From: an uncultured Leptospirales bacterium | Lineage (GTDB): Bacteria; Spirochaetota; UBA4802; UBA5550 | Reading direction: 5' to 3' | NCBI GenBank assembly: GCA_964534225.1 | Contig: CAZHNW010000002.1 | Span: 20,581 to 84,580 of the forward strand | Length of the DNA stretch: 64,000 bases | In this document: piece by piece, positions 6,827 through 39,944 of the stretch | Layout: each line of letters opens with the position of its first letter | How positions within the stretch are numbered: the first letter of the stretch is position 1 | Notes under the pieces: model-generated | Seen by the model: only the letters and a program-made list of their open reading frames with translations | What the model was told of the DNA's origin: nothing | The model's database searches: none | Made by a program: the position numbers and the translations under genes

Positions 6827-6893
6827 TTTTATTATGTCGCTTCAACTCCGTCAATCATTTGTTTATTTGTTATAATTAATTCCATTTATATAT

Positions 6894-8861: not shown

Positions 8862-8889
8862 ATACTAAATCAATGAGGTATCTATTTTC

Positions 8890-10026: not shown

Positions 10027-10288
10027 TGTAGTCCCTCTTCTATTATTATATTAATAATAATTTTATTATTTATAGTAGTAGTAGTAGTGTCGAAGAATTT
10101 TGTGAATAATTGCATTAACTCCTGAAAAATTCAAGACTTTTTGTTATTATTGTCCTGTTAATAACTGTGGTTCCCTTTGTATAAATTATTATTATAATCG
10201 TTGTATTTATAAATTAATTTGAAAACAGTATATTATTTATTATTTATAAACATGAATAACATACTGTTTTCAGTTTGTTAACAGGTAA

Positions 10289-21392: not shown

Positions 21393-21396
21393 AAAA

Positions 21397-21900: not shown

Positions 21901-21923
21901 CATCTGTTCAGGCAGGGGCCTTT

Positions 21924-22304
21924 TCAGTGGAGACGTATCTCCACGGAGTTGCGCCCCACTTCCTTCTTCCCCGCGGAGGCAACGACAAGAAAGGTACCCT
22001 CACTGTAGAGGGGGACCAGCATAGAGGCTGACTGGTCTTCAGGCTTTACCTCCCGGTACCGGGTGGCGCGTAGTTTTTTCTTCCCCCCCACTGCCTTTTC
22101 GAAAATATCAAGCTTTAACCGGTTAACGGTAAAGGGGCCTTCGGCCCTGACCAGTACCATGACATCTCCCGTGGTAAAGACCCTGCCGCATTTGACCCCC
22201 TTCCCTTCGGGGGTTTTACCCTCACAGAAGCTGACTGTTTCATTTTTTTTGCAGGAAGTTAAAAGCAGCATTAATGCGGCTATCATGAGAAGTGTCTTTC
22301 GCAT
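21924..22304 (-). CDS. hypothetical lipoprotein
   Basis: MRKTLLMIAALMLLLTSCKK, lipobox LTSC. No recognisable domain. Confidence 0.45.
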   Translation of the reverse strand: MRKTLLMIAALMLLLTSCKKNETVSFCEGKTPEGKGVKCGRVFTTGDVMVLVRAEGPFTVNRLKLDIFEKAVGGKKKLRATRYREVKPEDQSASMLVPLYSEGTFLVVASAGKKEVGRNSVEIRLH

Positions 22305-22325
22305 ACGATTCTCCTGTGGGGATAT

Positions 22326-23687
22326 TTAATTTTTACAGAGGGCGTCATAGAGCGCCGCCAGGGTCTCATCGGCGTGATAGTTCAGGACCCCGAAGTGGAA
22401 GCTGATCTGTGCCGGCCCCTGGTCAATAATTTCGATGTTGATATTTTTATCCTTCAGGGCTGTCGCTGCCGCGGCAATGACCCCTGGCTGGTCTCTCATA
22501 CCGATTCCCACGGGGGAGAGAACGGTAATGTTGTAGTTAAAGGAAATGCTGTCAGGGTTCAGCTGTTCCTGTATGACATCCTTCAGGTCATCTTCATAGC
22601 CAATCAGGTCGTCCTGGTTAAAGATGACGGAGACATCGTCCTTGTCCGTGGGATAGTGATAGGTTTCGATACCGAAATCCTTCATGATTTTAAGCAGGTC
22701 GTTGACAAAGCCGATGGTTTCACCGGCGCCGTCTTTTTCAAGATAGCAGTAGGCGATATTATCGAGGCGGGCGATGCCGACGACGGTTTCCTCGGGGATA
22801 CGTTCGGATACGATCATGGTTCCCGGTGCCGATGGATTGTTGGTATTGCGGATGTTTATCGGGATATGGCGTTTTTTGCAGTTCACCATGGCATCGAAGT
22901 GAAAGACATTGAATCCCTTTGATGACAGGAGCCTGATTTCTTTATAGGTAAGGCGCGGGATAACATGGGCCCCGGGAATGATACGTGGGTCCACCTGGTA
23001 GATGCCGTCGGTGTCGGTCCAGTTCTCATAGAGTGAGGCGTTGACCGCGTAGGCAACCTCTCCGCCCGTCAGGTCTGATCCGCCCCGGGAAAAGACGGCA
23101 ACATCACCTTTTTCCGTGATGCCGTAGTAGCCGGGAATGACCGCGACAAAATCATTGTCGCCAAGATGGGCAAGGTTTTTGTAGGTGACCGGAATGACCC
23201 TGGCGCTGCCGAAATCTTCGGATACGACGATGCCGATATCTTCAGGGAGGAGGAGCTTCGCGTTTATGCCTTCTTTTTTGAAGTAACGGGTGATGATTTT
23301 AGCATTATAATGTTCCCCCCGTGATGCAAAGAAGTCGATCTTTCTGTTGTCGGGAAGTGATTTTTTCAGGTCACTTCCCAGGTCAGAGAGAATGTCTTCC
23401 CCTTCGATACCAAGGTCTTTGATGAGGCGTGTGAACTTGTTTATAACGCTGCGGCTGCTTTCATCGGGGGTAATATTCTTGTTACGGATCCTGAAATGGT
23501 TTCCCCCCGTGGCGATATTGAAGAGATGATCCGTAACCTTTTCGCTGTCGATATCATCTTTGCCTGGAGCGGAGACAATGACATATTTTCTATCGGTGTT
23601 GGCTTTGATAATGTCTGTGACCTTTTCGATCTGTCCCGCGTTGGCCACTGAACTTCCCCCGAATTTACAGACAATGTGTCCTTCCAT
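22326..23687 (-). CDS. lysC: aspartate kinase
   Basis: 453 aa. N-terminal KFGGSSV amino-acid-kinase motif, two C-terminal ACT-like regulatory domains. Confidence 0.9.
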   Translation of the reverse strand: MEGHIVCKFGGSSVANAGQIEKVTDIIKANTDRKYVIVSAPGKDDIDSEKVTDHLFNIATGGNHFRIRNKNITPDESSRSVINKFTRLIKDLGIEGEDILSDLGSDLKKSLPDNRKIDFFASRGEHYNAKIITRYFKKEGINAKLLLPEDIGIVVSEDFGSARVIPVTYKNLAHLGDNDFVAVIPGYYGITEKGDVAVFSRGGSDLTGGEVAYAVNASLYENWTDTDGIYQVDPRIIPGAHVIPRLTYKEIRLLSSKGFNVFHFDAMVNCKKRHIPINIRNTNNPSAPGTMIVSERIPEETVVGIARLDNIAYCYLEKDGAGETIGFVNDLLKIMKDFGIETYHYPTDKDDVSVIFNQDDLIGYEDDLKDVIQEQLNPDSISFNYNITVLSPVGIGMRDQPGVIAAAATALKDKNINIEIIDQGPAQISFHFGVLNYHADETLAALYDALCKN

Positions 23688-23940
23688 TGTAGTTTAAACT
23701 CCCTTTGATGATTATGGTCTGCCCGGCATCTGTTGTGGCACCGGTTTTATACCGTAATGAGTATACCTGACATAAAAGAAGGGAGTGAACATATTGCAAG
23801 AATTTTTTATTATCCCTTCTTACCCTGAAAGCTGTACTTCAGTTTAAAAGACAGGAAATGAAGAAGAGGAAAAATGGCGTTTAATGAAGAAAAAATTGAA
23901 ATATAGGAAAGTCAATTAACATAAACCAGTTTATGATCCA

Positions 23941-24029
23941 TAAAAGTTCTTATCAGTAGCTGGTACATGTCTCAGAATTGTTAATATACTGACAAAATGT
24001 GCGGGATTGGCAAGACTTTTTTAAATTTT
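23941..24029 (+). repeat. 89-nt direct repeat, copy 1 (80% identical to 26011-26099, no gaps)
   Basis: taaaagttcttatcagtagctggtacatgtctcagaattgttaatatactgacaaaatgtgcgggattggcaagacttttttaaatttt. Contains a TGGTAC...TAATAT promoter-like pair and a terminal T-run. Confidence 0.55.
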
Positions 24030-24221
24030 GATGCCGGAGTAATTATTGACCCCGACTCTATCGAGTGTGGTAATCTCGGGACAGGTACCATTGATGAATT
24101 CAAAGTTACCATAGCATTTAAGCAGTTTCAGCTGGTGGATTATATAAACAGTACACCGGGTCTTCTTGACGGTGACACTGAAGCATCCTGCCTGGCGTCT
24201 TCCATATTTTGTTGCTGCTGA
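23997..24221 (+). CDS. doubtful small ORF (74 aa) starting inside repeat copy 1, ends in SSIFCCC
   Basis: ATG lies inside the repeat. The corresponding position in copy 2 has no ATG, no SD and no recognisable family. Probably non-coding. Confidence 0.15.
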   Translation: MCGIGKTFLNFDAGVIIDPDSIECGNLGTGTIDEFKVTIAFKQFQLVDYINSTPGLLDGDTEASCLASSIFCCC

Positions 24222-24358
24222 ATGCAGATATTTTTAAGCAGGGAGATGGGAAGATTTTCATGTAAAGGTATTTGTGTTTAGCAGGGATATTATTGTTTTC
24301 AACTGGCCTTTATCCAGAGCAGAATCCTGAAATAAAAAAACAGTATCTCTTTTATTCT

Positions 24359-25945
24359 TTAAACTGCCTGATAAAACTCCACCCGGTTCCTTCCGTTATT
24401 TTTTGCACGGTAGAGTGCCTGGTCCGCTTCGGAAAGCAATCTGCTTAATATCTCCTCAACGGACTCTTCTGTTTCTATGCTGGAGAAATCAATATATGAT
24501 ATGCCAAAACTTGCCGTAATCTGCAACACCTTCTCTTCAAAATCAATCTGCATGCCGGCAATCCGTTCTTTCAGCCTGTCTGCAATTTTTTCTGTACCAT
24601 TGCCACAGACATCGGGAAGAATAATGGCAAACTCCTCGCCGCCGTATCTGCCTGCGTCATCATTCTCTCTCAGGTCTGCTTTAAATACCGTTGCTATTTC
24701 AATCAACACGGCATCCCCGGCCTGATGGCCGTATGTGTCATTGACTTTTTTAAAATAATCAAGATCAAGAATTATAATGGAAAGTTTGCGTTTATGACGC
24801 CTGGCCCTGATTATTTCACTCTTGCATATATCAATAAAGTGACGCCTGTTTGACAGGCCGGTGAGATCATCAGTGGTGGCCAGATTATAGAGAGACTGTT
24901 GCAGGAGCTTCTGGGTGGTTATGTCGTTCAGCGTTATAATCGATCCGATGCGTTGTCCACGGGAAGAAGCAATATCGGTTATTGAAGAATTGAAATAGAT
25001 ATTCTTCTTGTTTTGTGTTAACTTCATTTCAATCGTTTTCCTGTTCTCCGAGTTTAAATGTGCAATTAACGGCGTCTGGTCTTTCAGTACATCGGCAAAC
25101 ACCTTTCCCCTTGATCCGGCAAGTTGGGGAAAAAGTTTCATTGACGAGGCGTTGAAATCAGCAATTCGTCGTTCCCGATCGACAACAATGACAGGGTCCA
25201 GCATATTTTCAAAAACACGACCGCGTGCTATGGGAATAATATCAAACATCTTAAACCTGAACAAGGCCAGGGCAAAAAACGGTCCTGTCAGTGCCAGGAA
25301 GAATGGATTGATGTCAACGCCCCCTGGCCCCAGTTCTGCCAGGTAGGCAATACTGCCCACCCAGGGAATCAGGGAAGCGACAAACATGGTAATTGCCTGT
25401 AAGCGCAGGGGACCTTTTGATTTAAACATCATCAGGAAAAAGAGAATGTTTCCTCCGATGATCAGAATGTCCCTATAGATAAAATCGATATAATACCATT
25501 TGCCCTTTGTAATGCCCGCCATGGGGAATGGACCCGAAGTGTCAAGAGTCAATGACGCATAATGAAGGTGATGGTGTTCATTGGTATAGAGCATGACAAT
25601 GGTCGTCAGGGGTACTACAAATAAAAGAGCGACAACCCTGGAGTTGATCTTTTCGGTATAGCCGCTGTATTGCAGGGCCATGATAATCCAGAAAACCGAC
25701 ATAGGGGCAATGCCGAGATATTCTATCTTCAGGGCAAGGTAGATTCCCTCAATAGTGGTATTGTACAACTCAAAGGCATAGCCAAAGGTGTATATAGACA
25801 GGGTGATCATTAATAGCATGTAAGCAATTGCACCCCTGGTATCTTTTCTTCGGGAGGCATAAAAGGAGAGGAATAAAGTTATCCCACCGGAAACCAGAAG
25901 GAATATGAGCAGTAACGTTTTGATAGACATATAATTCCTGAACAC
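24359..25945 (-). CDS. membrane-bound diguanylate cyclase: N-terminal polytopic (about 7 TM) sensor domain, PAS-like linker, GGDEF domain
   Basis: 528 aa. Multiple N-terminal TM helices, GGDEF active site RYGGEEFAIIL, with the upstream RxxD-type region. Confidence 0.85.
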   Translation of the reverse strand: MFRNYMSIKTLLLIFLLVSGGITLFLSFYASRRKDTRGAIAYMLLMITLSIYTFGYAFELYNTTIEGIYLALKIEYLGIAPMSVFWIIMALQYSGYTEKINSRVVALLFVVPLTTIVMLYTNEHHHLHYASLTLDTSGPFPMAGITKGKWYYIDFIYRDILIIGGNILFFLMMFKSKGPLRLQAITMFVASLIPWVGSIAYLAELGPGGVDINPFFLALTGPFFALALFRFKMFDIIPIARGRVFENMLDPVIVVDRERRIADFNASSMKLFPQLAGSRGKVFADVLKDQTPLIAHLNSENRKTIEMKLTQNKKNIYFNSSITDIASSRGQRIGSIITLNDITTQKLLQQSLYNLATTDDLTGLSNRRHFIDICKSEIIRARRHKRKLSIIILDLDYFKKVNDTYGHQAGDAVLIEIATVFKADLRENDDAGRYGGEEFAIILPDVCGNGTEKIADRLKERIAGMQIDFEEKVLQITASFGISYIDFSSIETEESVEEILSRLLSEADQALYRAKNNGRNRVEFYQAV

Positions 25946-26010
25946 AAATACGGGGTGTTATCGAAATAACATCTGGAAAATTTTCTCAAAAAAAATTAGT
26001 TCACACCCGA

Positions 26011-26099
26011 TAAAAATTCTTATTTGCAGCTTGTACTTGTCTCTGTAATGTTAATATATTGACAAAAAAATCGGGATTAGCAAGGTTTTTTTAAATTCT
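26011..26099 (+). repeat. 89-nt direct repeat, copy 2
   Basis: taaaaattcttatttgcagcttgtacttgtctctgtaatgttaatatattgacaaaaaaatcgggattagcaaggtttttttaaattct. About 200 nt upstream of the AraC-family gene. Confidence 0.55.
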
Positions 26100-26304
26100 C
26101 GAACGAAAAATCAGCCAAAAATTTTTGCGCGAACAAACCTCTTTGCATGTTCCATGCCCCGAAGGGGCTTTTCTTGAAATCAAACCTATGAGGGGAAAGA
26201 AATAACAGGGGAGTTATAAAAATGACTTGCCAGTGTTTTATGATTTGAAGTTACTGAAAAAAGTAAAACGCAGATGAAATTTTTGATAATATAGACACTG
26301 TTAT

Positions 26305-27393
26305 ATGAATCTATCCATCGATATTTATTTTTCAATTTTTGTTATTTCAGGGTGTTTCTTCTCCTTTTTCGTCTCCCTGGCGATATTTATCAAGCCCCGG
26401 GATGACAGGAGAAAGTTTCTCGAAGGGGCGGTTTTTCTGCTGGCCTCTCTCTGGATGTTCTGCGCCTATCACCGCCTGTTTCTCGGGAAACGGGAAGACA
26501 ACCTCTTTATCGTGGGTACCATTCTCTTTGCCTTTTTTGTGCCGGTACTCTATCTCTATATCCGTATGCTGCAGGATACCCGGTTTTCGCTAATCAAGAA
26601 GCATTTTATTCTCTTTGTTATACCTCTCCTGCTGCTGCCGGTTTTTATGGTGACGTTCCGGTTTCCCCCCGGTTTTTATGAATTATTTAATGTCAGGCCC
26701 CTGGAGGCAAGTCTGCGATATTCCATTCTTATGGGGGCAACCTTTGCCGAAAACCTTTACCTCTTTGTTATGCTCTTTGTTCTGAATATGCAGTTTGTCA
26801 AAATATTCCGTACCGGCAGGGACAACCGGTACCATTACCTGCGCTATTTTTTTGTGCTTACCTTTTTCCTTAACCTGATCATCGGTTTCTATTTTGTGAA
26901 TTATTTTCTCGAACTGAAAATGATTAAATATTCTTATATAACGGGAACAATACTGGTATATTATTTTTTTGTAATATATTTTATTTTTTTCGCCGAGATA
27001 TCCACACGCTACGAAGAGGAAAAAAAACAGCCCGATGGAGACTGTTTGAAGGGGCTTGATCCGGCTCTCCTTTTGTCCCGCCTTGAAAGCCTGATGCATG
27101 AGGAGAAACTCTACCGCTCTGAAGACCTGACACAGAGGGCCCTGGCAGAGAAGTTGCGTATTTCTCCCCAGCAGCTTTCGGCCCTTTTTGGTGTTTACAT
27201 TAAAAATAATTATTATTCATACCTTAGTGCATGGCGTATCGATGAGGCAAAAGAACTGCTTCTCGACGCCCCGGAGATGAAGATCCTTGAAATTGCCCTG
27301 CACGTGGGGTTCAACTCACAATCATCCTTTTACAGCGCCTTTAAAGGGGTGACCGGTATTTCTCCCCGGGAGTATAGAAAAAGTAAGGTATAA
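26305..27393 (+). CDS. AraC/XylS-family transcriptional regulator with N-terminal multi-TM membrane domain
   Basis: 362 aa. About 7 hydrophobic helices in the first 230 aa. C-terminal double HTH (LSALFGVYIKNNYYSYLSAWRIDEAKELL...SSFYSAFKGVTGISPREYRK). Confidence 0.8.
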   Translation: MNLSIDIYFSIFVISGCFFSFFVSLAIFIKPRDDRRKFLEGAVFLLASLWMFCAYHRLFLGKREDNLFIVGTILFAFFVPVLYLYIRMLQDTRFSLIKKHFILFVIPLLLLPVFMVTFRFPPGFYELFNVRPLEASLRYSILMGATFAENLYLFVMLFVLNMQFVKIFRTGRDNRYHYLRYFFVLTFFLNLIIGFYFVNYFLELKMIKYSYITGTILVYYFFVIYFIFFAEISTRYEEEKKQPDGDCLKGLDPALLLSRLESLMHEEKLYRSEDLTQRALAEKLRISPQQLSALFGVYIKNNYYSYLSAWRIDEAKELLLDAPEMKILEIALHVGFNSQSSFYSAFKGVTGISPREYRKSKV

Positions 27394-27403
27394 AATAAAA
27401 AAA

Positions 27404-27434
27404 GACGCATCTGGTTCCAGATGGAAGTTTTTTT
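27404..27434 (+). terminator. rho-independent terminator after the AraC-family gene
   Basis: Hairpin GCATCTGG-ttcc-AGATGG followed by TTTTTTT. Confidence 0.5.
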
Positions 27435-27528
27435 GTCCTTAATTAAGTATCTATTAATCATAACTATGCTTTTTCAGATTATAAATTTTTGAACCTGTTC
27501 CGGTCTGAGTGGAAAAGCAGCGAGGAAC

Positions 27529-30021
27529 GTGATGATGAAGTTAAAAGCAGCCATCCTGAATATGTGTATTATTTCCCTCTTTGCCGCCTGCGGCGGCATA
27601 AGTCCCCTTGAAATGGCCGGTAATTTTATTGCCAACAGGCCCCCGGAGATCACGGATTTCAGGACTACAACTGATATTAGCCGGGGCCTTATCCCCAATA
27701 TGACCATGCATCTTGAGGTTGAGGCGGATGACGCTGATGGCCATGAACTGAACTATGAGTTTACCGCCGATAACAGTATCGGTTCCTTTGCCTTTAAAGA
27801 AGTAACAGACACGGGGTGTTCCATAGATTATTACCTGCCTGATGCCATTCCCCTGGACCTTTCATTCAGTGTCACCGTTACCGTCACCGACCCGAAGGGG
27901 GCTGAGTCGGTACAGAAGCTGGATCTCGGCACGGGGAAGACGGGGCCGGTACTTTCTACACGGACCCTCAGTGAGACCGGTTTTTTTGTTGTACGTGAAG
28001 GGCGCACCTATGTAAAACCGGATTACCAGGCGGAGATAGAATTTACCAGTGACAGCGACGGCTTTTACCAGGTGCGTATTTACAGTGACTTTGAGGCGGA
28101 ACCATCCTTTGATGAAAGCAAACCGGTTCATCTCTACCGTGTTGCCAGCGGCCCTAAAACCATTACCATAGCCGCCAGCGGTACCTCCGCTGACGCGATC
28201 ATTACCCCCAACACGCCCCAGAAGCTCTGCATCTTTATGCAGGACACCCTGGGACAGACCAGCCTCAAGGTCTATTATTACTATGCAGACACGGCACCCC
28301 CGGCGCCCCTCATGGACTATAAACATGGCATTGCCATTACGAAAGGTCAGACCCTGGTGATACCCTTTGATGAAGAACTTCAAATCTCAGGGGCAGCGGC
28401 CTTTGATTCCACTGATCCTGTCAATACTATTCTTGATGACGGCATAAACGCCACGGCAACGGTAAGCGGCTCAACAGTAACCATTACTCCTCAAACGGGC
28501 AGCACCTGGTCAATGGCCACTGAAAGATATTCGCAGCAATACGAACTCTATCAGACGGGCCTTGACAGGATTGCCCGCATCAACGTAAAGGATGATTTTG
28601 ACAACGAGGGATATGTGGATATCCGGTTTCATGTTTTTGAAGAGGTTCTGTATGTCAATGCCGGTAATACCGCTGCCAGCCCTGACGGTTCAGCGGACAA
28701 TCCCTACAGGTATATTCAGGATGCCGTGGATGTTGTCCGTACCAGTGGTAATATTGCGGGGATATGTGTCTCACAGGGAACCCATACACCTCAATACACC
28801 GGAACCAGTGTTGCCCTGATAAGTGGTTATGAACAGGTCAATCTCCTGGGGGGCTATGCGTATCAGGATAATGATACCACAAAGGTCAACCCCCTGCGAA
28901 GAGACCCGCAGAAGTACCCTTCGGTTATCAGTTATACCGCCCCTGATCCTGATGGCGCCGGTTCTAATCCCGGGGGGGCCATTGATGAGCCGGCAAGCGC
29001 CATCTTGATGGGGACGGATAGTAATTATAATTATCCGGTTCTCATTGACGGTTTCATCTTTGAGACCTCCGGGCATGCAAAGGGCTCCACCGTTGTCGCG
29101 GATATTTTCTGTGGCAACCATGCTGCCATGATCCAGGGCAATGTCTTTTATACTGCCGCCAATACTGCCTACAGCTTCAATATTGCTGTTGTCTATAACA
29201 ATGTGATTGAAGGGATCAGTAATACCAGTTACTGTCTCGCATATGAACAGCGCATCTACAATAATTATTTTTTTACCGGTGGGCAGAACAACCATGCCAG
29301 GGCGATACAGATCGAGTGCTGGAGTGAAGATGACATTACCCCTGTTCATGCTACTGATCTTCAGTATAAGGCGGATATCCGTCACAACACCTTTGCCCTG
29401 AGCAGCGGTTCCGGGGGAAAAACCAAGGGGGTTTATATCAGCACCTATCACTGTACCGATCCCAATGCTCCATCAAATCAAGTCTGTTATGAAAACACAA
29501 CAGCGGATTTTCAGATTGATGCAACGGTAATGAATAATCTTATTTTTGTTACCGCCTTTGACCCGGCAAACAGGCCCATGGCCCTTTTCAGTCATCATGC
29601 AGAAACCGCGCCGGGGAATTATTGCGTCTATAACGCCTTTCATAATAATTTTAATGACCTTTCGACAGTCTCTTCAGAATCAGAGATGTATTATTATGTA
29701 CTCAGTTCGCATGTCTCCACTCAAAATTTATATAATCAGGGTTTTGGCTATTATGATACATTGCCATTACCCTCATGGAGCGGTTTTGGCAGTGAAAATA
29801 TAGCCGTTGATCCTCTTTTTGTGTCAGCAGATGGTCTCTGGCTGCTTCAGCAGATAAGCCCGGTTTCAGTACGGATCGAGGGTATTGACGATTCACCCTC
29901 AACAGACGATGGTAATTACCAGGCCTTTGGCCAGATGATTCCCCTGGATTTTTTCGGCAATGCCCGCACCGGCAACGGTACTGACGGAGTATCCCTGGGG
30001 GCCCATGAGATGGACCAGTAG
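27529..30021 (+). CDS. large lipoprotein (830 aa), probable right-handed beta-helix/adhesin-like surface protein
   Basis: Lipoprotein signal MMMKLKAAILNMCIISLFAACGG. T/S/N/G-rich repetitive beta-strand segments (NNVIEGISNTSYC, NNYFFTGGQNNHARAIQIE). G7 tract 28972-28978 inside the CDS. Domain assignment is tentative. Confidence 0.45.
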   Translation: MMMKLKAAILNMCIISLFAACGGISPLEMAGNFIANRPPEITDFRTTTDISRGLIPNMTMHLEVEADDADGHELNYEFTADNSIGSFAFKEVTDTGCSIDYYLPDAIPLDLSFSVTVTVTDPKGAESVQKLDLGTGKTGPVLSTRTLSETGFFVVREGRTYVKPDYQAEIEFTSDSDGFYQVRIYSDFEAEPSFDESKPVHLYRVASGPKTITIAASGTSADAIITPNTPQKLCIFMQDTLGQTSLKVYYYYADTAPPAPLMDYKHGIAITKGQTLVIPFDEELQISGAAAFDSTDPVNTILDDGINATATVSGSTVTITPQTGSTWSMATERYSQQYELYQTGLDRIARINVKDDFDNEGYVDIRFHVFEEVLYVNAGNTAASPDGSADNPYRYIQDAVDVVRTSGNIAGICVSQGTHTPQYTGTSVALISGYEQVNLLGGYAYQDNDTTKVNPLRRDPQKYPSVISYTAPDPDGAGSNPGGAIDEPASAILMGTDSNYNYPVLIDGFIFETSGHAKGSTVVADIFCGNHAAMIQGNVFYTAANTAYSFNIAVVYNNVIEGISNTSYCLAYEQRIYNNYFFTGGQNNHARAIQIECWSEDDITPVHATDLQYKADIRHNTFALSSGSGGKTKGVYISTYHCTDPNAPSNQVCYENTTADFQIDATVMNNLIFVTAFDPANRPMALFSHHAETAPGNYCVYNAFHNNFNDLSTVSSESEMYYYVLSSHVSTQNLYNQGFGYYDTLPLPSWSGFGSENIAVDPLFVSADGLWLLQQISPVSVRIEGIDDSPSTDDGNYQAFGQMIPLDFFGNARTGNGTDGVSLGAHEMDQ

Positions 30022-30084
30022 GCAGGCCTTTAAAATTATAAAAAAAGAAAATAACTGTATTTATACAACGGGAGTAAAAGAACG

Positions 30085-31029
30085 ATGACCGGTAAAAATA
30101 ATGGCAAGATCGGCACAGGACTGGTGGCTTTCATCGCCCTGGCCTCTGTGGCGGGGGCACTTTTGATGACCAGAACGGGATTTGATAAAAAAAGCGCCTC
30201 TATCAACGCGCGGGTGACATTTCTTGTGGGTTCCGCTCAGGTGACACGGCAGAAAAAGGAGACAGTCCTGAGGGCGGGTGATGCCCTGCAGCAGGGCGAT
30301 GTAATACGCACGGGTAAAAAGTCGCGGCTGGTTGTACAGGTTGACCGCGTGGGGGTGCTGACACTTTTTGCCGACGCGGTTTTTTATCTTAAAGAGGTTC
30401 AGGGGGGGAAGTTAAAGGCCACCAGGGTGGGCCTTGACAGGGGGCGCCTTTTTTCAAAAATTTTGAAACAGAAAAAGGGCCCCTACACGGTGCAGACACC
30501 CACGTCTACCGCGGCGGTGCGGGGTACATCTTTTCTCACCACTACTGACACCAGGGGATCATCACACCGTCTCCTGGAGGGGAAGGTACTTGTGACTTCC
30601 CTCACGAAAAAGAAAATGACCGGGGAGGAAAAAATTCTCGAACCGGGATCGGCCGCCCTGGTTACGAAAAATAGAAAGGTTGCCATCAGGAAAATGGACA
30701 GGCTGGAGAAACTTGAAACAGAAAAGCTGGGCCTTTATCCCTACCGGGAACATATCGATGATAAAAAAGAAGCAGAAAGGACTGAAAATAACGTAGAGAG
30801 CGAAGAAAACAGGCTGCAGAAAATGATCAACCAGGAGCTGGATAAACTTCCCCCCCTTGAAAAACTGCGCCGCCAGGGCAGGCCCCTTACCATGCTCTCC
30901 CTGAAAGATGGTTCACGTATTACCGGGCATGTGGTAAGTTCTGATGCCGGGTTTGTCCGCTTTGATACGGGGCGGAGGGTCATTTCCATTGAGGTGGGTG
31001 ATATCAGGCGCCGGGTTCCGGTGAAATAG
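30085..31029 (+). CDS. FecR-domain protein with N-terminal membrane anchor and C-terminal coiled-coil
   Basis: TM/signal anchor, then FecR-like beta-sandwich region (GDVIRTGKKSRLVVQV...TPTSTAAVRGTSF). Charged coiled-coil tail. G7 tract 30402-30408 in the CDS. Confidence 0.65.
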   Translation: MTGKNNGKIGTGLVAFIALASVAGALLMTRTGFDKKSASINARVTFLVGSAQVTRQKKETVLRAGDALQQGDVIRTGKKSRLVVQVDRVGVLTLFADAVFYLKEVQGGKLKATRVGLDRGRLFSKILKQKKGPYTVQTPTSTAAVRGTSFLTTTDTRGSSHRLLEGKVLVTSLTKKKMTGEEKILEPGSAALVTKNRKVAIRKMDRLEKLETEKLGLYPYREHIDDKKEAERTENNVESEENRLQKMINQELDKLPPLEKLRRQGRPLTMLSLKDGSRITGHVVSSDAGFVRFDTGRRVISIEVGDIRRRVPVK

Positions 31030-31043
31030 AAGGGATTGATAAA

Positions 31044-31886
31044 ATGAAAAAAAGAATGACGGGCATTGTTATCGCGGGGCTGCTTTTCTGCGCCGCGGCA
31101 CTCTCGGCGGAGATGGTCTACCTTAAAGACGGGCAGGTGATATCGGGGAAGATCACAGCAGAGAACCGGGTTTTTATTACAGTCAAGAATAAGTATCAGA
31201 CCTTTCAGTTGAAACGTTCGGATATAAAGCGCATCATGTACGGTGACCGTAAAATGGAGACCATCTATATCGAAAAGACAGATGGTAAACTTTTGAAGGG
31301 ATTCATGGTCGACCAGGATGCACTGAAGGTTTATTACAAAAAATCGCGGGACGCCCGGGAGACGATTATCCTGAAGAAAAACATAACGCGCATGTCGTCG
31401 CATCCCTTTGTGCCCCTGGACGTGGGGCTCATGCTGCGCAGTGGTATCTTCTACCCCGTTAATTCGGGCAACTCCTCCCTGGGGGTGGCGCCGGTGGTCC
31501 TTGCCTCGGCGGGGCTTAATCTTCCTTTTAAGAATTTTCGCCTTTTCATGGAGTCGGGGTATTATCAGAGTACAAGCTCTGTTCACACCGACCAGTTCAT
31601 GTTTTTTATTCCCGTGACGGTAAATCTTACCTACGATTTTGCCTTTGGCCATTTTCACCTGCTGCCAAAGGCGGGGACAGGTATCGCCATTGTCAGGTTT
31701 GATGATGGTGAAGGGAGTGATGCTTCAGGAACGACCTTTAACCTGATTATCGGCGCGGGAGGAATGTGGGAAATTTTCAAACGCCGCCTTTACGCGGGCC
31801 TCTGGTTCGACTACTGCCTCATTGCTGATTCAAGCGCCGCCTGGCATGGTATTATGGCAACGGCCAGTATCAGCTACCGGTTTTGA
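31044..31886 (+). CDS. hypothetical exported protein with C-terminal beta-barrel-like region (outer-membrane protein candidate)
   Basis: Signal peptide MKKRMTGIVIAGLLFCAAALSA. C-terminal alternating strands ending ...ASISYRF (terminal Phe). Confidence 0.45.
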   Translation: MKKRMTGIVIAGLLFCAAALSAEMVYLKDGQVISGKITAENRVFITVKNKYQTFQLKRSDIKRIMYGDRKMETIYIEKTDGKLLKGFMVDQDALKVYYKKSRDARETIILKKNITRMSSHPFVPLDVGLMLRSGIFYPVNSGNSSLGVAPVVLASAGLNLPFKNFRLFMESGYYQSTSSVHTDQFMFFIPVTVNLTYDFAFGHFHLLPKAGTGIAIVRFDDGEGSDASGTTFNLIIGAGGMWEIFKRRLYAGLWFDYCLIADSSAAWHGIMATASISYRF

Positions 31887-32106
31887 GCCCCCGTATTTTT
31901 TTCTAAAAATTTTTCTGGTTTTTCATTATGCCAAAATTTATGATGATAGTTTTGGAACCCGGGTTATTTGCTCCAGGATAAAATTCATCTTGAGATTTCT
32001 GTTCACTACAGGTATTATAAATCAATTATCTTCCGGGGCCCGGAGGACCAATGGCTGTTTTCCGGGTATGAGAAAAGAATAATTTTTTACAGTAAGAGGA
32101 ATTACC

Positions 32107-33438
32107 ATGCCAAGGCTGAAAGATATCAGGGGTCACACCCGTCTTTTCCTCGAGGATTACTCGAAAAAAATTTTAAGAAGTGAAATGATTCGCGCGGGAA
32201 TCGTGGCATCTATTTCCTTTATTGCCATGACATGGTTTTTTGTTACTCTCTTCATTTTTCCTGATTACTTCCCCTCGGCGGCATTGAAGGAGTTCAGGGG
32301 GATTTCGATTTTTGCCTGGCTCGCCCTTGTTTTTGTTCTTCTGGGTGTCTATGAAATTATTTTTATGGGCGTTTTAAGGATGTTTATGAAAAGGGAGAGG
32401 AAGTTTCCCCTGGCTCCCCGGTTCTTTAATGCCTTTATCGAAATATCTACCCTTTCCCTGGTCATCTTTTTTTCAAGCCGTGCCGGCCTCGGCATTGAAT
32501 CGATTTTTACGCCGACAATTTTTCTCTACTTCATTTTTATTGCCCTTAGCTCCCTGCGTCTTATTGTCAGCCTTTCATTTTTTACCGGTTTTGTCGCTGC
32601 TGCAGAATATATCATTATGGCCTTCACTTTCATGGAAAAGTATGCCGCAACAGACCAGACCGGCATGGCATCTGTGGCCTACTCGCCCGGCTTTCATCTT
32701 TCACGGGGCCTGATTCTCTTTGCCGCGGGTCTCGTCACCGGTTTTGTTTCCTACCAGATCAAGAGACGACTCGTCAGTTCCCTGGAAAGCATTGAGGAGA
32801 GAAAAAGGGTACTTACCATTTTTGGCGAACATGTCTCACCCCAGGTGGTAACGCGTCTTGTTGAAGCGGGGGGGGAGATCAGCAATGAGAGCATCTATGT
32901 CTGCATCATGTTTTTTGATATTCGAAATTTCAGCTCCTTTTGCGAAAATCACAGTGCTGAAGAGGTAACAGGTCTACTCAACTATCTCATCGAATTTATA
33001 GTGGAGATAGTTGATGAACATCACGGCATGGTGAACAAGTTTCTCGGTGACGGGTTTCTTGCCCTTTTTGGCGCCCCCTTTCCATCGGGGGATGACTGTG
33101 CCAATGCGGTTATGGCGGCCCTTGCTATTGTTGATCGTCTCGAGGAGGAGATCAGAAAGGGCTTTATTGAACCGGTACGTGTCGGTATCGGTATACATGC
33201 GGGAGATGTTATCTCAGGTAATGTCGGTTCTACTCGCCGTAAGGAATATACTATTATTGGCGATGTGGTCAATATCGCCTCCCGCCTGGAGCAGTTGAAT
33301 AAAAAGTTTTCCTCGACGCTGCTGGTCTCCGGCGAGGTGTGGAAACAGCGGGGAGATCTTTCGGTAAAAGGTGAAAATCTTGGATCTGTCGCGGTAAAAG
33401 GGTATTCTGCACCGGTGCCGGTTTACCGTCTGCGGTAG
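32107..33438 (+). CDS. membrane-anchored class III adenylate/guanylate cyclase
   Basis: 443 aa. Six-ish N-terminal TM helices. Cyclase-homology domain motifs IMFFDIRNFSSF and KFLGDGFLALFGAP. Confidence 0.85.
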   Translation: MPRLKDIRGHTRLFLEDYSKKILRSEMIRAGIVASISFIAMTWFFVTLFIFPDYFPSAALKEFRGISIFAWLALVFVLLGVYEIIFMGVLRMFMKRERKFPLAPRFFNAFIEISTLSLVIFFSSRAGLGIESIFTPTIFLYFIFIALSSLRLIVSLSFFTGFVAAAEYIIMAFTFMEKYAATDQTGMASVAYSPGFHLSRGLILFAAGLVTGFVSYQIKRRLVSSLESIEERKRVLTIFGEHVSPQVVTRLVEAGGEISNESIYVCIMFFDIRNFSSFCENHSAEEVTGLLNYLIEFIVEIVDEHHGMVNKFLGDGFLALFGAPFPSGDDCANAVMAALAIVDRLEEEIRKGFIEPVRVGIGIHAGDVISGNVGSTRRKEYTIIGDVVNIASRLEQLNKKFSSTLLVSGEVWKQRGDLSVKGENLGSVAVKGYSAPVPVYRLR

Positions 33439-33640
33439 TTAAACTTCCCCCCCCCTCATTATTTTTTTGCATGAGGTCTGCGCGACTGGTCAAATTCCGA
33501 CCGGACTGTCTTTAATTCTTGACAAGGAATTTAGTTTTTGTTTTATTGTTGATTGACATGTCAGTCATTAAGTTCCGGAAAGATGATTCTAACCGGGTGT
33601 CTGATTTCTTCATGTCTTTGGGAGAAGGAGGAAAAGAAAT

Positions 33641-36202
33641 ATGAAAAAAGCTCTGGTACAACTGTTTGTTTTTGTTTTCATACTTTTTGGTTTTTTCGGG
33701 TGTGATGATCCCTATGAGTCCATATTCGATAACAGGCCTGATTATCCCACCGGGAGAGGATGGTCCTATATGGGACCTGAATCGCAGAATCCCTTTAAAT
33801 TCGCCAATAAAACATACAGGGTAAAATTTTATAAAAATGACGGGTATATTAAGACCTCGTCATTAGGATACTGGACAGGCAGCAGTGACGAGGCTGTGGT
33901 TTTCTACCTGAAACCGGCGGCACTGGGTCAGTATATTCTCATGGACAGGGATCATAAATATCTTTCTGTTTTTGGTTCTCTTGTTATCAGGTCCGGGAAT
34001 CTTACCAACAATGTGATATGGGAAATTGCCAGTTCCGGGGATGATAATATATTTGTTCTTCGTTCACTGGAAAAGCAGAAATATCTTGCTGTTGGCAGCA
34101 GTGGAGCCCTGAAGCTGGTTGATTCCCTTACCACGCGATGGAACACAAAAAGGGAAGAGTGCGGTATTGTTTTTTCTGAGGTTGAGGCTGATTTCTCATT
34201 TCCCGAGGCGGAGATAAATGTGGCCTTTACTGATGATGCTGGCAACAGTGTCTCTCCCGGAAATGCCCTGCAGCGTCCTGCCCCGGAAGAGGAAATAATC
34301 GGTTATGCAGACGTTCATACCCACCTGAACCACTACCTCGGATCAGGACAGGCGAACTTTGTGGGTGCCAATTTTTCCCCCCTGGGAATACAGAAAGCCC
34401 TTGATGACTGCGGTTCTATTCATGGCATTAATGGTACCATGGATATTTTTGGCATGGCACTGGATGGCCATACCACCCATGATACAGGAGGATATCCTGA
34501 TTTTCCCTTCTGGCCCACATCATATTCAGAAACCCACCAGCAGGCCTATTACAGGTGGCTCGAGCGGTCATGGCTGGCAGGGCAGCGTGTCCTGGTGCAG
34601 CAGTTTGTGAATAATGAGATACTGGGAGAAATCCGGCGCCGACTTCCCCTGGCAGATCCTGATGCCCCCACCAATGACATGGTTGTCTGTGAGATTCAGA
34701 TGAAGAATATGTATGCCATGCAGGAATATATCGATGCCCAGAGCGGCGGTCCCGGCAGGGGCTGGTTCAGGATATGCACCTCATCAAAAGAGGCCCGCCA
34801 GGTTATCAGCGATGGTAAAATGGCTGTTTTTCTTGCTATTGAGGTAGATACGGTTTTCGGTATCGAGGATGATATCAAGGGAATGGCCGAAGCCGGCCTT
34901 ATTCCTGAAAGTGACTGGGCAAAGGCGAAGGAAAATATTCTCAGTCAGCTTGAAATGTTTTATGATCTGGGGGTTCGCAGTATTTTTCCTGTTCATGCCT
35001 TTAATAATGGTTTTGCCGGGGCGCAGCTCTACCAGGCCCCCATGTTTAACCTGGTTAACTGGGTTGAGCGGGGTGAGTTCTACAGTGTAGAGTTAAGCCC
35101 CAATCCCCGGGTGACCTACCGCGAAGGGGGGATAGAGGTTCAGGATCAAAAGGTCATGGAAGTCCTTGAATCACTCGGCTTTATTGATTCTCTTGTTCCC
35201 CTTGTGCCGGCAGGTTCTGATGATGGTACCTGGGGGCACTCCAATAAGGTTGGCCTATCAGCCACGGGTGAATGGCTCATAGATGAACTGGTCAAGCGGG
35301 GGATTGTGGTGGAAGTTGACCATATGAGTGACCGGTCTCTGAACCGGACCCTTGAACTTCTCGAGGAAAAGAGGTACCCCGGTGTTATTGCCAGTCATAC
35401 CCGTATTATAGACATGTATCCTGACGGCAATACCGATGCATGGGAACAGATGGATATCCCCCGCATGATCCGTGTCATGCGTCTCGGGGGGATTATTTCC
35501 CCCATGCTCTGGTCTACCATGGCAGAAGAACAGAAGTGTGCCGCAGACCACCTGAAGCTGATGATCGAAGGGGGTGGGTATTTTGGTGATGCGAACCATA
35601 AAGATTATGATTACCGCTATACCCGTTTCAACGAATTCGATCCCGGTATTGCCAATTATGACGGCGGCAACCTGATCATAAGGCCTTCATGGTATAACTG
35701 CAATGATAATCCTGACGATGACCTGATCCTTGGTATACCCTTTGCAACGGATGTCAACGGGGCATGCAGGCTTCCGGCCTTTAAGCCCTATGGTGCGCGT
35801 GAAAACGATAACATGGACCCGGGAATCTACGGAACCTATAACGAAGTCAAACTTCCCCGGGACGAAACGGGCAGGTATACCTTTGGTACCCTCTACCCGG
35901 GAGTCTACCAGCCGGGGGTCACTGCCCTGTTCAGCCAGCAGAAAACGGGTAACAGGGTTTTCGATATCGAGGCATCACCTGGAGTGGCACATTATGGCCT
36001 GATTCCTGATCTTATTAAAAAGCTTCAGAGCCGGCCAAAGCAGGTCAACCAGGACGCCCTTTTTCATTCAGCAGAGGCGTACCTGAGGATGCTTGAACGA
36101 ACAGAACGGTACAAGGAAAATCCTGACGAGATAAAGAATGGCTGGAATGCATGGCTTGAAAGCATGAATGACCAGCTGCCCCTTGAAAGGCATATGCAGT
36201 AG
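33641..36202 (+). CDS. large lipoprotein with ricin-like/beta-trefoil N-terminal region and a membrane-dipeptidase (peptidase M19)-like TIM-barrel domain
   Basis: Lipobox FFGC. Segments align by eye to M19 dipeptidase blocks: ADVHTHLNHY, LAIEVDTVFG...FYDLGVRSIFPVHAFNNGFAG, GIVVEVDHMSDRSL...PGVIASHTRI. Catalytic assignment unverified. Confidence 0.5.
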   Translation: MKKALVQLFVFVFILFGFFGCDDPYESIFDNRPDYPTGRGWSYMGPESQNPFKFANKTYRVKFYKNDGYIKTSSLGYWTGSSDEAVVFYLKPAALGQYILMDRDHKYLSVFGSLVIRSGNLTNNVIWEIASSGDDNIFVLRSLEKQKYLAVGSSGALKLVDSLTTRWNTKREECGIVFSEVEADFSFPEAEINVAFTDDAGNSVSPGNALQRPAPEEEIIGYADVHTHLNHYLGSGQANFVGANFSPLGIQKALDDCGSIHGINGTMDIFGMALDGHTTHDTGGYPDFPFWPTSYSETHQQAYYRWLERSWLAGQRVLVQQFVNNEILGEIRRRLPLADPDAPTNDMVVCEIQMKNMYAMQEYIDAQSGGPGRGWFRICTSSKEARQVISDGKMAVFLAIEVDTVFGIEDDIKGMAEAGLIPESDWAKAKENILSQLEMFYDLGVRSIFPVHAFNNGFAGAQLYQAPMFNLVNWVERGEFYSVELSPNPRVTYREGGIEVQDQKVMEVLESLGFIDSLVPLVPAGSDDGTWGHSNKVGLSATGEWLIDELVKRGIVVEVDHMSDRSLNRTLELLEEKRYPGVIASHTRIIDMYPDGNTDAWEQMDIPRMIRVMRLGGIISPMLWSTMAEEQKCAADHLKLMIEGGGYFGDANHKDYDYRYTRFNEFDPGIANYDGGNLIIRPSWYNCNDNPDDDLILGIPFATDVNGACRLPAFKPYGARENDNMDPGIYGTYNEVKLPRDETGRYTFGTLYPGVYQPGVTALFSQQKTGNRVFDIEASPGVAHYGLIPDLIKKLQSRPKQVNQDALFHSAEAYLRMLERTERYKENPDEIKNGWNAWLESMNDQLPLERHMQ

Positions 36203-36219
36203 TCTCTTATTATTAAGAA

Positions 36220-36259
36220 TAAAAAAGCCGTCCGGTGCTGAACCGGGCGGCTTTTTTTT
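36220..36259. terminator. bidirectional rho-independent terminator between convergent genes
   Basis: AAAAAA-AGCCGTCCGGT-gctga-ACCGGGCGGCT-TTTTTTTT. The T-run overlaps the stop codon of the pyrophosphatase gene. Confidence 0.6.
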
Positions 36260-37913
36260 AAGAAGACCGGCTGATAACCTCCGTCAGGTAGGGAATAAGC
36301 TGCTTTTTCCGGGAAAGGATTCCCTTCATGCTGTAGATGTCTTTCTGGATTTTCGGGTAGGTGAGTGATGCCTTTACTTCCTCATCGCCGGCAATAAAAA
36401 AGATACTGTCCAGTTCGGTAATGTCGGTAACGAGAAGGGCAGAGAAAAGGAAATTTTCCGATTTCTGAAGTTTGTTGAGCTCTTCAAGTATTTTGTCCTG
36501 CCTTTCCATTAACTCTGTCAATGTGGTAACTTCCACCTGGCTGACCGAATAGGAGGTGTCTCCCTGGGGATAACGTTTCATGTCCATTGCAAGGATTTCG
36601 TTGACGGGCTTTTTACCGATCTGTGAAGCGGCATGCATGATATCATTGCCAAATTCTTCGATGGAGAGATCGGTTATTTCCGCAAGGTATTGTGCCACAT
36701 TCCTGTCTGTATCCGTGGTGGTGGCGGAGCGGAGTATAAGCGTATCAGAAAGGATCCCCGCAAGGAGAAGGGAGGCAATATTTTTCTGCATGGGAATCTT
36801 TTGTTCCAGGAACAGGGTGGCAATAATCGTGGATGTTGATCCCACGGGCTTGTTGATAAAGGTAATGGGGTAGGTGGTGGGAGGATTTCCCAGCCGGTGG
36901 TGGTCGATGATCTCGAGAATTCGATAGTTTTTAATGCCCTCTGCCGCCTGGGAGAGCTCGTTATGATCGACGAGAATGACATCAATGTTCGGCTCTCCCA
37001 TCAGGTCTCCCTGGCTGAGAATGCCGATGACCCGTTTTTCCGCGTCTACTACGGGAAGGGAGCGTGAAATACTGGCGCTTATCTTTTCGTGTATGTTCTT
37101 GATATACTGGTCTTCTCCAAGGGGCTCAAGGGCATTGTCTGCCATGAATTTGACAGGTGTGGCATAGAATGAAAGGAGAGAGCTTGTTGCCGTATCAAAG
37201 GGGGAGATGAGCAGGGAGGTCTTTTTTTTCTCCGCCAGTTCCCTGACGTCCTTCCGGATTGTTTTCCCCCCTGTAACGACAAGGCAGCGAATACCCCTTT
37301 CGATGGCGGCCCGGTGAACCTCGGCCCTGTTGCCTGCGATGATAATAATATTTTCACCGGGGATGGAATCGATAAATTCACTGATGGTCTCAAGGTCTGA
37401 TGCCGCCACCAGGAGGCGCGCCTTGAATACCTCGTCGCCATGAAAGGTAATGATCTCCTGGGCGTTGAGAGTCTGGCTCAGCATGGTGATGGTCGTGGGA
37501 ATAATGTTTTGCCGGTGAGGATCGATTTTTTTCAGCATGTTTTGCGCAAAGGCATTGTAGTGAAGTACCGAGGTAAGTCTTTTACTGTCATCAACAACAG
37601 GAAGCATTTTATGGTTGTCACGGTTGAGGATTTCAAGGGCTTCCCAGAGTGGTGTTGATTCATGAACTGTCAGGGGGGAGATGCTCATATAGTTTCTTAC
37701 ACGCGGTACAAGGTCACTGATGAGACGTGGTTTTTCTACATCGAAGCGCCGCAGTATGTAGTCAGTCTGGGGATTTATTTTTCCCACGCGAACCGGGTAG
37801 CATTCAGAAGCACCCTGGAGTTTTTTCAAATCCGCATAGGCAATGGCAGAAACCACGGAATCGGTATCGGGGTTGCGGTGACCGAGGATATAGGTTTGTT
37901 TCTTCTGTTTCAT
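36258..37913 (-). CDS. CBS-domain-containing manganese-dependent inorganic pyrophosphatase (family II, DHH/DHHA2)
   Basis: 551 aa. DHH motif I GHRNPDTDS, motif DHNE (ILVDHNELSQ), inserted CBS pair, C-terminal DHHA2. Confidence 0.85.
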   Translation of the reverse strand: MKQKKQTYILGHRNPDTDSVVSAIAYADLKKLQGASECYPVRVGKINPQTDYILRRFDVEKPRLISDLVPRVRNYMSISPLTVHESTPLWEALEILNRDNHKMLPVVDDSKRLTSVLHYNAFAQNMLKKIDPHRQNIIPTTITMLSQTLNAQEIITFHGDEVFKARLLVAASDLETISEFIDSIPGENIIIIAGNRAEVHRAAIERGIRCLVVTGGKTIRKDVRELAEKKKTSLLISPFDTATSSLLSFYATPVKFMADNALEPLGEDQYIKNIHEKISASISRSLPVVDAEKRVIGILSQGDLMGEPNIDVILVDHNELSQAAEGIKNYRILEIIDHHRLGNPPTTYPITFINKPVGSTSTIIATLFLEQKIPMQKNIASLLLAGILSDTLILRSATTTDTDRNVAQYLAEITDLSIEEFGNDIMHAASQIGKKPVNEILAMDMKRYPQGDTSYSVSQVEVTTLTELMERQDKILEELNKLQKSENFLFSALLVTDITELDSIFFIAGDEEVKASLTYPKIQKDIYSMKGILSRKKQLIPYLTEVISRSS

Positions 37914-37933
37914 GTGAGCTGGTTCTCCCTGTC

Positions 37934-38200
37934 TCAGAGAAGGGACCCCTGGAGGTCATCTTCGTCGGCAATTTCTCCCGTCTCTTCTTTGACCTTGATT
38001 TTCTTTTTTTCTACGGAGTCATCATCGCCCGTCTGGAGGATCTCTATCTTCTTTTCAGCCTCTTCCAGTTTTCCGTGACAGAGGCGGGCATACTGCATGC
38101 CCTTTTCGAATTCAGCGATTGAATCTTCAAGGGAGAGTTCCCCCGTTTCCAGTTTGCGTGCAATCTCCTCGAGAGAGGAGATTGCATCTTCGAATTTCAT
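37934..38200 (-). CDS. xseB: exodeoxyribonuclease VII small subunit with acidic C-terminal extension
   Basis: Core FEDAISSLEEIARKLETGELSLEDSIAEFEKGMQYARLCHGKLEEAEKKIEIL. ATG at 38200 preferred over the GTG at 38269, which would overlap xseA by 56 nt. Confidence 0.75.
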   Translation of the reverse strand: MKFEDAISSLEEIARKLETGELSLEDSIAEFEKGMQYARLCHGKLEEAEKKIEILQTGDDDSVEKKKIKVKEETGEIADEDDLQGSLL

Positions 38201-38213
38201 GTCTGCGGGTATT

Positions 38214-39509: not shown

Positions 39510-39562
39510 CTGTGTTTCTTGATGGATAATGACGACGGAACCAGAAAAATTTCAATGATTAT

Positions 39563-39907: not shown

Positions 39908-39944
39908 AACAACACCCCGGTAATTTTTTGTATAACAGATTATA

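Follow-up and report, generated by a model that had tools for sequence, protein, structure and literature searches.

Which of the genes clustered at positions 27529-33438 of a 64,000-nt stretch of DNA from an uncultured Leptospirales bacterium belong together, and what might they do at the cell envelope? The stretch, hereafter the window, covers positions 20,581-84,580 of contig CAZHNW010000002.1, and all coordinates given below are window positions. A sequence-only reading had proposed that a large lipoprotein, a FecR-domain protein, a barrel protein (here open reading frame 4, ORF4) and a membrane class III cyclase form a single signalling operon, with homopolymer tracts acting as slipped-strand switches. 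Here, we searched the six-frame open reading frames of related loci with tblastn, phmmer and hidden Markov models. We report that the conserved unit is a Spirochaetota trio composed of the lipoprotein, the FecR-like protein and the barrel, and not a four-gene set ending with the cyclase. Our preferred interpretation, which we consider about evenly balanced, is that the trio would constitute a FecR-based trans-envelope module devoid of a TonB-dependent transducer, paired in this lineage with a membrane AraC regulator (AraC-TM), the cyclase being a neighbour. The four predicted open reading frames were all recovered on the forward strand and are listed here with the regulator gene that precedes them:

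26305-27393, forward strand: AraC-TM regulator gene, matching PF12833 (HTH_18) with an E-value of 1.6e-20 and featuring hydrophobic segments
27529-30021, forward strand: lipoprotein gene, 830 amino acids; gap of 63 bp to the FecR gene
30085-31029, forward strand: FecR-domain gene, 314 amino acids; gap of 14 bp to ORF4
31044-31886, forward strand: ORF4 (barrel), 280 amino acids; gap of 220 bp to the cyclase gene
32107-33438, forward strand: class III cyclase gene, 443 amino acids

The conserved unit and its three proteins

A scan of genome and metagenome contigs, performed with a 7-sequence ORF4 alignment (a 26-sequence alignment being too diverse for this purpose) and relying on one or two peptide patterns, hence of limited sensitivity, returned 21 loci (L013-L033), ~13 of them distinct. 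Every record with a title belongs to a Spirochaetota or Leptospirales metagenome-assembled genome (MAG), except one Omnitrophota match that involves the N-terminal domain only. A FecR homologue lies immediately 5' of the ORF4 homologue in all 14 distinct loci for which upstream sequence is available, with gaps ranging from -17 to +81 bp. The pair is adjoined by the N-terminal module (~250 amino acids) of the lipoprotein in ~10 loci, namely the window, L013-L018, L023, L027 (two copies) and L030; the lipoprotein gene is found upstream in the window and in L013/L006, immediately downstream in L014-L018, L023 and L027, and in divergent orientation in L030. The three genes are hence co-conserved in related genomes, and the earlier view of an envelope or cell-surface cluster built on a FecR-domain protein and an outer-membrane barrel is supported. 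In one Leptospirales MAG (L018, 564-1540), the ORF4 homologue is split over two reading frames, either as a frameshift pseudogene or as an assembly error. Our literature search found no description of the lipoprotein-FecR-barrel trio, nor any functional information on LIC13076, LA_0442, LB137 and LA_3334.

The comparison with L013/L006 delimits the conserved block. Among the window open reading frames of at least 100 amino acids, only those encoding AraC-TM (58% identity), the lipoprotein (63%), the FecR protein (51%) and ORF4 (68%) have homologues there, and the flanks of this AraC-TM-trio block differ on both sides. Because only these four open reading frames recur amid changed flanks, the conserved block corresponds to positions 26305-31886 and leaves out both the upstream GGDEF gene and the downstream cyclase gene.

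The FecR domain call was borne out by PF04773 (46.4 bits for a cutoff of 24, amino acids 72-168, nt 30298-30588). The domain is preceded by a signal-anchor helix (amino acids 8-32, nt 30106-30180), which is the single N-terminal hydrophobic helix of the protein and leaves ~8 residues in the cytoplasm, and is followed by a charged helical linker and a C-terminal beta domain of ~40 amino acids (270-309, nt 30892-31011). The first 40 amino acids contain no Cys, so the protein has no lipobox. Only 10 codons separate the upstream stop from the ATG, and the protein therefore has no anti-sigma domain, the cytoplasmic N-terminal region of ~80-90 amino acids ahead of the transmembrane helix being absent; likewise, a phmmer search with the extracytoplasmic function (ECF) sigma factor of L014 detected no ECF sigma gene in window positions 20000-40000. 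Given its ~8 cytoplasmic residues and the absence of an anti-sigma domain, the idea that this FecR protein transmits signals to a cytoplasmic partner is not supported.

The window FecR protein is rare, with four homologues among 5.8 billion proteins. Other spirochaete FecR-domain proteins are the SigX/Rsx pair (LIMLP_03680/03685; NF047528) of Leptospira interrogans and the lipoproteins LipL45, Lsa33 and Lsa19; SigX controls lipoprotein genes in L. interrogans (PMC7708080), and LipL45 and Lsa33 are FecR-domain proteins without anti-sigma function (PMC5553009). The window protein is a distant relative of the Rsx, LipL45 and Lsa33 families and not a member of them, because it scores far under their respective cut-offs: 23.6 bits, a weak match, for the LIMLP_03685 (Rsx) anti-sigma family NF047528 (cut-off 200), 44.3 bits for LipL45 (NF033165; cut-off 350) and 52.7 bits for Lsa33 (NF047849; cut-off 420). 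The Rsx-family models align with amino acids 111-308 (FecR domain, linker and C-terminal domain). Across the related loci, the FecR homologues display the following N-terminal forms:

L014, L022 and L025: anti-sigma type, with ~85 cytoplasmic amino acids and a transmembrane helix; in L014/L021 and L025, immediately preceded by an ECF sigma gene
L015, L016, L017, L019, L023, L027 and L030: lipobox type; no regulator, mostly housekeeping neighbours
The window and L013: signal-anchor type without Cys; AraC-TM regulator (~7 transmembrane helices, 26305-27393)

The inner-membrane-anchored forms hence co-occur with a regulator gene, encoding either an ECF sigma factor, with Sigma70_r2 and r4_2 domains in L014/L021 and L025, or AraC-TM, whose ~7 hydrophobic helices are followed by a C-terminal HTH_18 domain. 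Four of the lipobox-type loci (L015, L016, L017 and L023) are flanked by housekeeping genes encoding GltX, Sir2 and a methyltransferase. In L014 (3252-4987) and L025 (3-1629), the ECF sigma gene overlaps or abuts the gene of the anti-sigma-type FecR homologue, which is followed by the ORF4 homologue; L014, where a lipoprotein homologue is also present, provides a complete sigma/anti-sigma/barrel/lipoprotein version.

In ORF4, a signal peptide is followed by two small beta domains in tandem and by an 8-stranded barrel that ends in YRF:

31113-31232, forward strand: beta domain 1 (amino acids 24-63)
31266-31394, forward strand: beta domain 2 (amino acids 75-117)
31422-31880, forward strand: 8-stranded barrel (amino acids 127-279)

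The C-terminal barrel noted earlier could be confidently assigned to the OmpA/NspA-like, 8-stranded type, ORF4 possessing the signal peptide, the eight antiparallel transmembrane strands and the C-terminal aromatic residue expected of such outer-membrane proteins. No match to Plug, TonB_dep_Rec or STN was obtained. Sequence identity to the small 8-stranded barrels NspA, OmpA (transmembrane domain), OprF-N, PagL, OmpX/Ail and OmpW is just 7-16%, and the two periplasmic beta domains of ORF4 are N-terminal, whereas OmpA has a C-terminal peptidoglycan-binding domain. The ORF4 family comprises 33 clusters at E<1e-30, all of ~280-290 amino acids and of the same architecture. With 38 bits (E 1e-9, amino acids 12-68) for a cut-off of 43, ORF4 is clearly related to Lepto_7_Nterm (NF047433), though outside its curated threshold.

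Profile-profile comparisons indicate that a single beta domain of ~40 amino acids is present in three copies, once at the C-terminus of the FecR protein and twice in the N-terminal part of ORF4. The hhalign probabilities reach 97% (E 1e-10) between the FecR C-terminus and ORF4 domain 1, 92% between the FecR C-terminus and domain 2, and 96% between the two ORF4 domains, the E-values ranging from 1e-10 to 5e-7. Both proteins also match the same NCBIfam models, NF047624 (LIC_13076 family) and NF047528 (C-terminus of the LIMLP_03685 family). The tandem N-terminal domain of ORF4 (~45 amino acids per domain; amino acids 10-118, 31071-31397) has no Pfam model and recurs in several hundred clusters (318 at E<=1e-3); elsewhere (P0170-P0276) it is fused to unrelated C-terminal regions, many of these proteins being ~470 amino acids long.

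The third member, the lipoprotein, has the N-terminus MMMKLKAAILNMCIISLFAAC, with the lipobox LFAAC. Its true start is more likely the ATG at 27532 or 27535 than position 27529, because GAGGA occurs at 27522-27526. The N-terminal ~260 amino acids (27529-28308) form a conserved immunoglobulin (Ig)-like module common to the lipoproteins of related loci, and the N-terminal ~380 amino acids consist of Ig-like all-beta domains, a region where P0126 and the L014 homologue match Big_5 and Big_9. The C-terminal ~450 amino acids (28666-30021) are lineage-specific and end with a "GAHE" motif. Only this motif and the N-x-[FIV] ladder motifs at amino acids 538, 558, 579, 620, 670 and 706, which are invariant in alignment A1, suggest that this part is possibly beta-helical, or compatible with a beta-solenoid, as the sequence-only reading had assumed. 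No match was obtained in Pfam and NCBIfam (E up to 10) or PHROGs (E up to 1), including the Beta_helix and PbH1 repeats of right-handed parallel, pectate-lyase-like beta-helix proteins, and profile and single-sequence searches of the PDB returned nothing (best E 0.96). The AlphaFold2 (AF2) model derived from a 3-sequence alignment is all-beta, with a predicted local distance difference test (pLDDT) score of 41. Two homologues were found among 5.8 billion proteins. The distal parts differ from locus to locus, with PKD/Big domains in L014, LVIVD repeats in L016, six Big_7 domains plus SBBP in L017, and an unclassified region in the window.

Signalling or surface display

Under our preferred interpretation, the module would be a relative of FecA-FecR-FecI cell-surface signalling that operates independently of a TonB-dependent transducer. 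The surface lipoprotein, retained at the barrel, would be the part that is exposed or binds the ligand, and the periplasmic tandem domains of the barrel would dock the homologous C-terminal domain of the periplasm-spanning FecR-like protein. In some lineages, the latter would be a genuine anti-sigma factor that crosses the membrane and is encoded along with a dedicated ECF sigma factor; in the lineage of the window, the inner-membrane-anchored FecR-like protein, if signalling at all, may act on the co-conserved membrane AraC regulator. As in FecA-FecR-FecI, a periplasmic FecR-domain protein is encoded beside an outer-membrane beta-barrel partner, related lineages carry a transmembrane anti-sigma FecR with an ECF sigma gene directly upstream (L014/L021 and L025), and a contact is predicted between the C-terminal part of FecR and the barrel protein's periplasmic N-terminal domain. 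There are also differences: the barrel is an 8-stranded OmpA/NspA-like one instead of a 22-stranded TonB-dependent transducer, without Plug, TonB_dep_Rec or STN; the predicted contact involves homologous ~40-aa beta domains; a dedicated lipoprotein is the third conserved member; and the window FecR protein has neither an anti-sigma domain nor an ECF sigma gene nearby.

Several observations weigh against this interpretation. The window FecR protein lacks a cytoplasmic domain, and its coupling to AraC-TM would need to take place in the membrane or the periplasm. AraC-TM is associated with the trio in one independent lineage only (window/L001 and L013/L006), and four lineages carry the trio without a nearby regulator, which fits a non-signalling structural role. 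In L001, a sister strain described below, the intact lipoprotein gene and ORF4 are lost and the FecR and cyclase genes are kept. Three further points would favour a link with the cyclase. No convincing terminator follows ORF4, the fold being no better than that of shuffled sequence (z -0.21), so that co-transcription with the cyclase gene is possible. In L027, a class III cyclase of another type (7TM-DISM-like) is encoded 495 bp upstream of the FecR-ORF4-lipoprotein genes. Finally, FecR-domain genes are known as neighbours of CHASE2 cyclase genes in Campylobacterota, where clusters encoding a CHASE2 adenylate cyclase, a FecR-domain protein, a TPR protein and a phosphodiesterase have been documented (PMC9239204).

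The main rival to a signalling module is a structural or adhesive surface-display complex, in which the barrel and the FecR-like scaffold would span the periplasm and tether or position a surface lipoprotein of modular build, be it adhesin, enzyme or binding protein, the regulators being incidental. We consider it possible, if somewhat unlikely. It is consistent with the FecR homologue being itself a lipoprotein (lipobox Cys) amid housekeeping flanks in L015, L016, L017 and L023, with the adhesin- or enzyme-type domains that vary by locus in the distal part of the lipoprotein (PKD, Big_7, LVIVD, SBBP), and with the description of the Leptospira FecR-domain proteins LipL45 and Lsa33, which the window FecR protein matches weakly, as membrane or surface proteins that bind laminin and plasminogen and not as regulators (PMC5553009).

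Strain variation points in the same direction. The sister strain L001, represented by a contig of Logan SRR28093593, is 98-99% identical to the window at the nucleotide level in the flanks. In its lipoprotein gene, window positions 27581-29946 are swapped for a 1.1-kb sequence (L001 3622-4721) encoding a homologue 38-45% identical to amino acids 436-829 of the lipoprotein; this remnant is without the N-terminal ~400 amino acids and is interrupted by two or more frame changes. Because the remnant is equally distant from the window lipoprotein and from that of L013 (43% identity for L013), the latter two being 63% identical to each other, it is an imported or anciently divergent allele. ORF4 of L001 carries a 434-bp frame-breaking deletion (window 31078-31512; L001 5851-5853) between GCGGGGCT direct repeats, and the FecR (98%) and cyclase (99%) genes are intact. 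An assembly artefact is less likely than genuine variation, because the deletion joins the GCGGGGCT repeats and the lipoprotein segment is homologous but divergent coding sequence. Since they are replaced or deleted in L001, the two predicted surface components are dispensable and represent the variable part of the locus, as would be expected of dispensable, surface-exposed antigens or phage receptors.

Two observations speak against a pure display function. First, three lineages encode ECF sigma/anti-sigma versions of the same FecR subfamily with the same FecR-ORF4 arrangement. Second, when the genomic surroundings of the trio changed, the AraC-TM gene went with it. A more ambitious proposal, which we advance with considerable doubt, is that the trio represents a new class of spirochaete trans-envelope signalling device, where a small barrel with tandem SH3-like periplasmic domains would replace the TonB-dependent transducer, docking with FecR would occur via the homotypic ~40-aa domains, the lipoprotein would serve as a modular sensor, and the cytoplasmic output would have been swapped in evolution (ECF sigma factors in some lineages; a membrane AraC regulator here; in the window and L027, perhaps class III cyclases too).

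The cyclase and the homopolymer tracts

Could the cyclase instead be the output of a single lipoprotein-FecR-barrel-cyclase operon turning a cell-surface signal into cyclic AMP or cyclic GMP, as the sequence-only reading had it? The enzyme itself is as predicted. Its class III assignment was confirmed by PF00211 (94.4 bits for a threshold of 21.9, amino acids 264-432, nt 32896-33402), and its hydrophobic N-terminal 250 amino acids, where helices are joined by short loops, agree with ~6 transmembrane helices. It carries the motifs FFDIRNF, KFLGDGF and GDVVNIASR, in line with the metal-binding Asp residues and the GDxVNxASR motif of class III cyclases, and a Lys...Thr pattern that we take to suggest an ATP-specific class IIIb enzyme. 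The Pfam search revealed no CHASE2 or other periplasmic sensor domain. The full-length family (P0002-P0120) combines a ~6-helix membrane anchor, a domain without Pfam model, with the catalytic domain in ~440 amino acids (40-63% identity across 95-100% of the length), and is found in Spirochaetota, Beggiatoa/Parabeggiatoa, KSB1, CSSED10-310 and other groups. The bacterial group of the window appears to encode many cyclases.

The gene is preceded by the following region, where transcription of a separate cyclase unit probably begins:

31887-32106, forward strand: 220 bp, intergenic and AT-rich; sigma-70-like match to a promoter (TTGAGA-17-TATTAT) at 31990-32018

In addition to the terminator, L027 and Campylobacterota arguments given above, the operon model has in its favour that the four genes are adjacent and co-directional in both the window and L001. 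It is nevertheless improbable on several grounds. The nearest intact relative, L013, has no cyclase gene within 5 kb downstream of ORF4 or 10 kb upstream, and a cyclase is also missing from at least eight other loci with enough flanking sequence. Adjacency to the trio was seen in two of ~9 informative loci, with cyclases of different types, downstream in the window and upstream in L027. Orthologues of the window cyclase with 62-63% identity neighbour an AraC/GyrI-like gene and a SpoIIE phosphatase gene, those with 48% identity are located after cysS, and none of them has a FecR gene nearby. The window cyclase lacks a periplasmic domain, CHASE2 or other, that could take a signal from FecR, a 220-bp gap with a promoter-like site stands ahead of its gene, and in L001 it is intact despite the broken ORF4 and lipoprotein genes. 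The resemblance to the Campylobacterota clusters (PMC9239204) lies in a gene for a FecR-domain envelope protein beside one for a membrane class III cyclase; unlike in these clusters, the window cyclase has ~6 transmembrane helices without CHASE2, no TPR or phosphodiesterase gene is present, and the adjacency is not conserved in relatives. The surface-to-cyclic-nucleotide module is thus unsupported, and the window cyclase is most likely a separately transcribed neighbour and not part of a conserved module.

The homopolymer tracts, finally, comprise the two G7 runs and the C9 run reported earlier, all of which are present, and two tracts that had been missed (C7 and G8):

28972-28978, forward strand: G7 in the lipoprotein gene; codons CCC GGG GGG GCC (P-G-G-A)
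30402-30408, forward strand: G7 in the FecR gene (Q-G-G-K; Q-S-E-T in L013)
30850-30856, forward strand: C7 in the FecR gene
32868-32875, forward strand: G8 in the cyclase gene
33447-33455, forward strand: C9, intergenic, 9 nt past the cyclase stop codon

That the locus is a phase-variable contingency locus, with the G7 runs of the lipoprotein and FecR genes as slipped-strand ON/OFF switches, is highly improbable, even though the tracts exist in frame, the genes encode envelope or surface proteins, the locus varies between strains and the local density is four tracts for 1.2 expected (post-hoc Poisson P ~0.04). The number of G7/C7 matches in the whole window is not above chance (20, compared with 16.7 +/- 5.9 in dinucleotide-preserving shuffles). 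Despite ~1.5% point divergence, the lengths of the G7 at 30402, the C7, the G8 and the C9 are identical in L001, where the C9 flank has one T fewer; the G7 at 28972-28978 falls in the segment replaced in that strain. No run of at least seven is found in the L013 orthologues, and the strains were seen to differ by the replacement of an allele and by a deletion flanked by GCGGGGCT direct repeats rather than by slippage. Seven G residues are short for efficient slippage. The G7, C7 and G8 tracts are ordinary Gly-Gly or Pro-Pro codon runs, and their interpretation as switches is unsupported.

Surrounding genes and significance for spirochaetes

Between the AraC-TM gene and the lipoprotein gene lies one further element:

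27408-27423, seen on both strands: terminator-like hairpin with T/A runs on either side (consensus match only)

An Rfam scan of positions 26000-34000, which includes the 220-bp cyclase leader, revealed no RNA element. An open reading frame of 305 amino acids on the reverse strand (30741-31658) was rejected as a shadow of the FecR gene and ORF4, its sole homology in L013 being the antisense of these real genes. Genes linked to nucleotide signalling are abundant around the locus: a 7TM-PAS-GGDEF diguanylate cyclase gene (24359-25945, reverse strand), the class III cyclase gene (32107-33438, forward strand) and, also counted among them, a gene for a DHH-CBS-DRTGG-DHHA2 protein (36258-37913, reverse strand); none of the three is syntenic with the trio in L013. 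A second large lipoprotein (33641-36202, forward strand; 853 amino acids, lipobox FFGC) matches Peptidase_M19 (membrane dipeptidase) only in part, at amino acids 534-594, and is kept in L001 and not in L013. Farther away, positions 6001-12000 have a G+C content of 0.33-0.36, compared with 0.43-0.54 elsewhere, and the GC skew flips sign near 10 kb; this stretch may be a foreign island or reflect a strand switch.

Our analysis deflates the two central claims made for this locus, for neither a surface-to-cyclic-nucleotide pathway nor phase variation is backed by good evidence, and redirects attention to the trio. How spirochaetes perceive signals through their unusual envelope, or bring lipoproteins to the surface, is poorly understood. 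The conserved module of three genes, in which a putative docking domain recurs and to which some lineages add an ECF sigma factor, constitutes a testable candidate for a FecR-type pathway without a TonB-dependent transducer. It also offers a first context for Leptospira families still called "hypothetical", including the Lepto_7 N-terminal domain, LIC_13076 and the relatives of Rsx, LipL45 and Lsa33. Lastly, the replacement and loss seen at the strain level suggest that the two surface components are under diversifying or negative selection, perhaps exerted by phage, predators or immune pressure.

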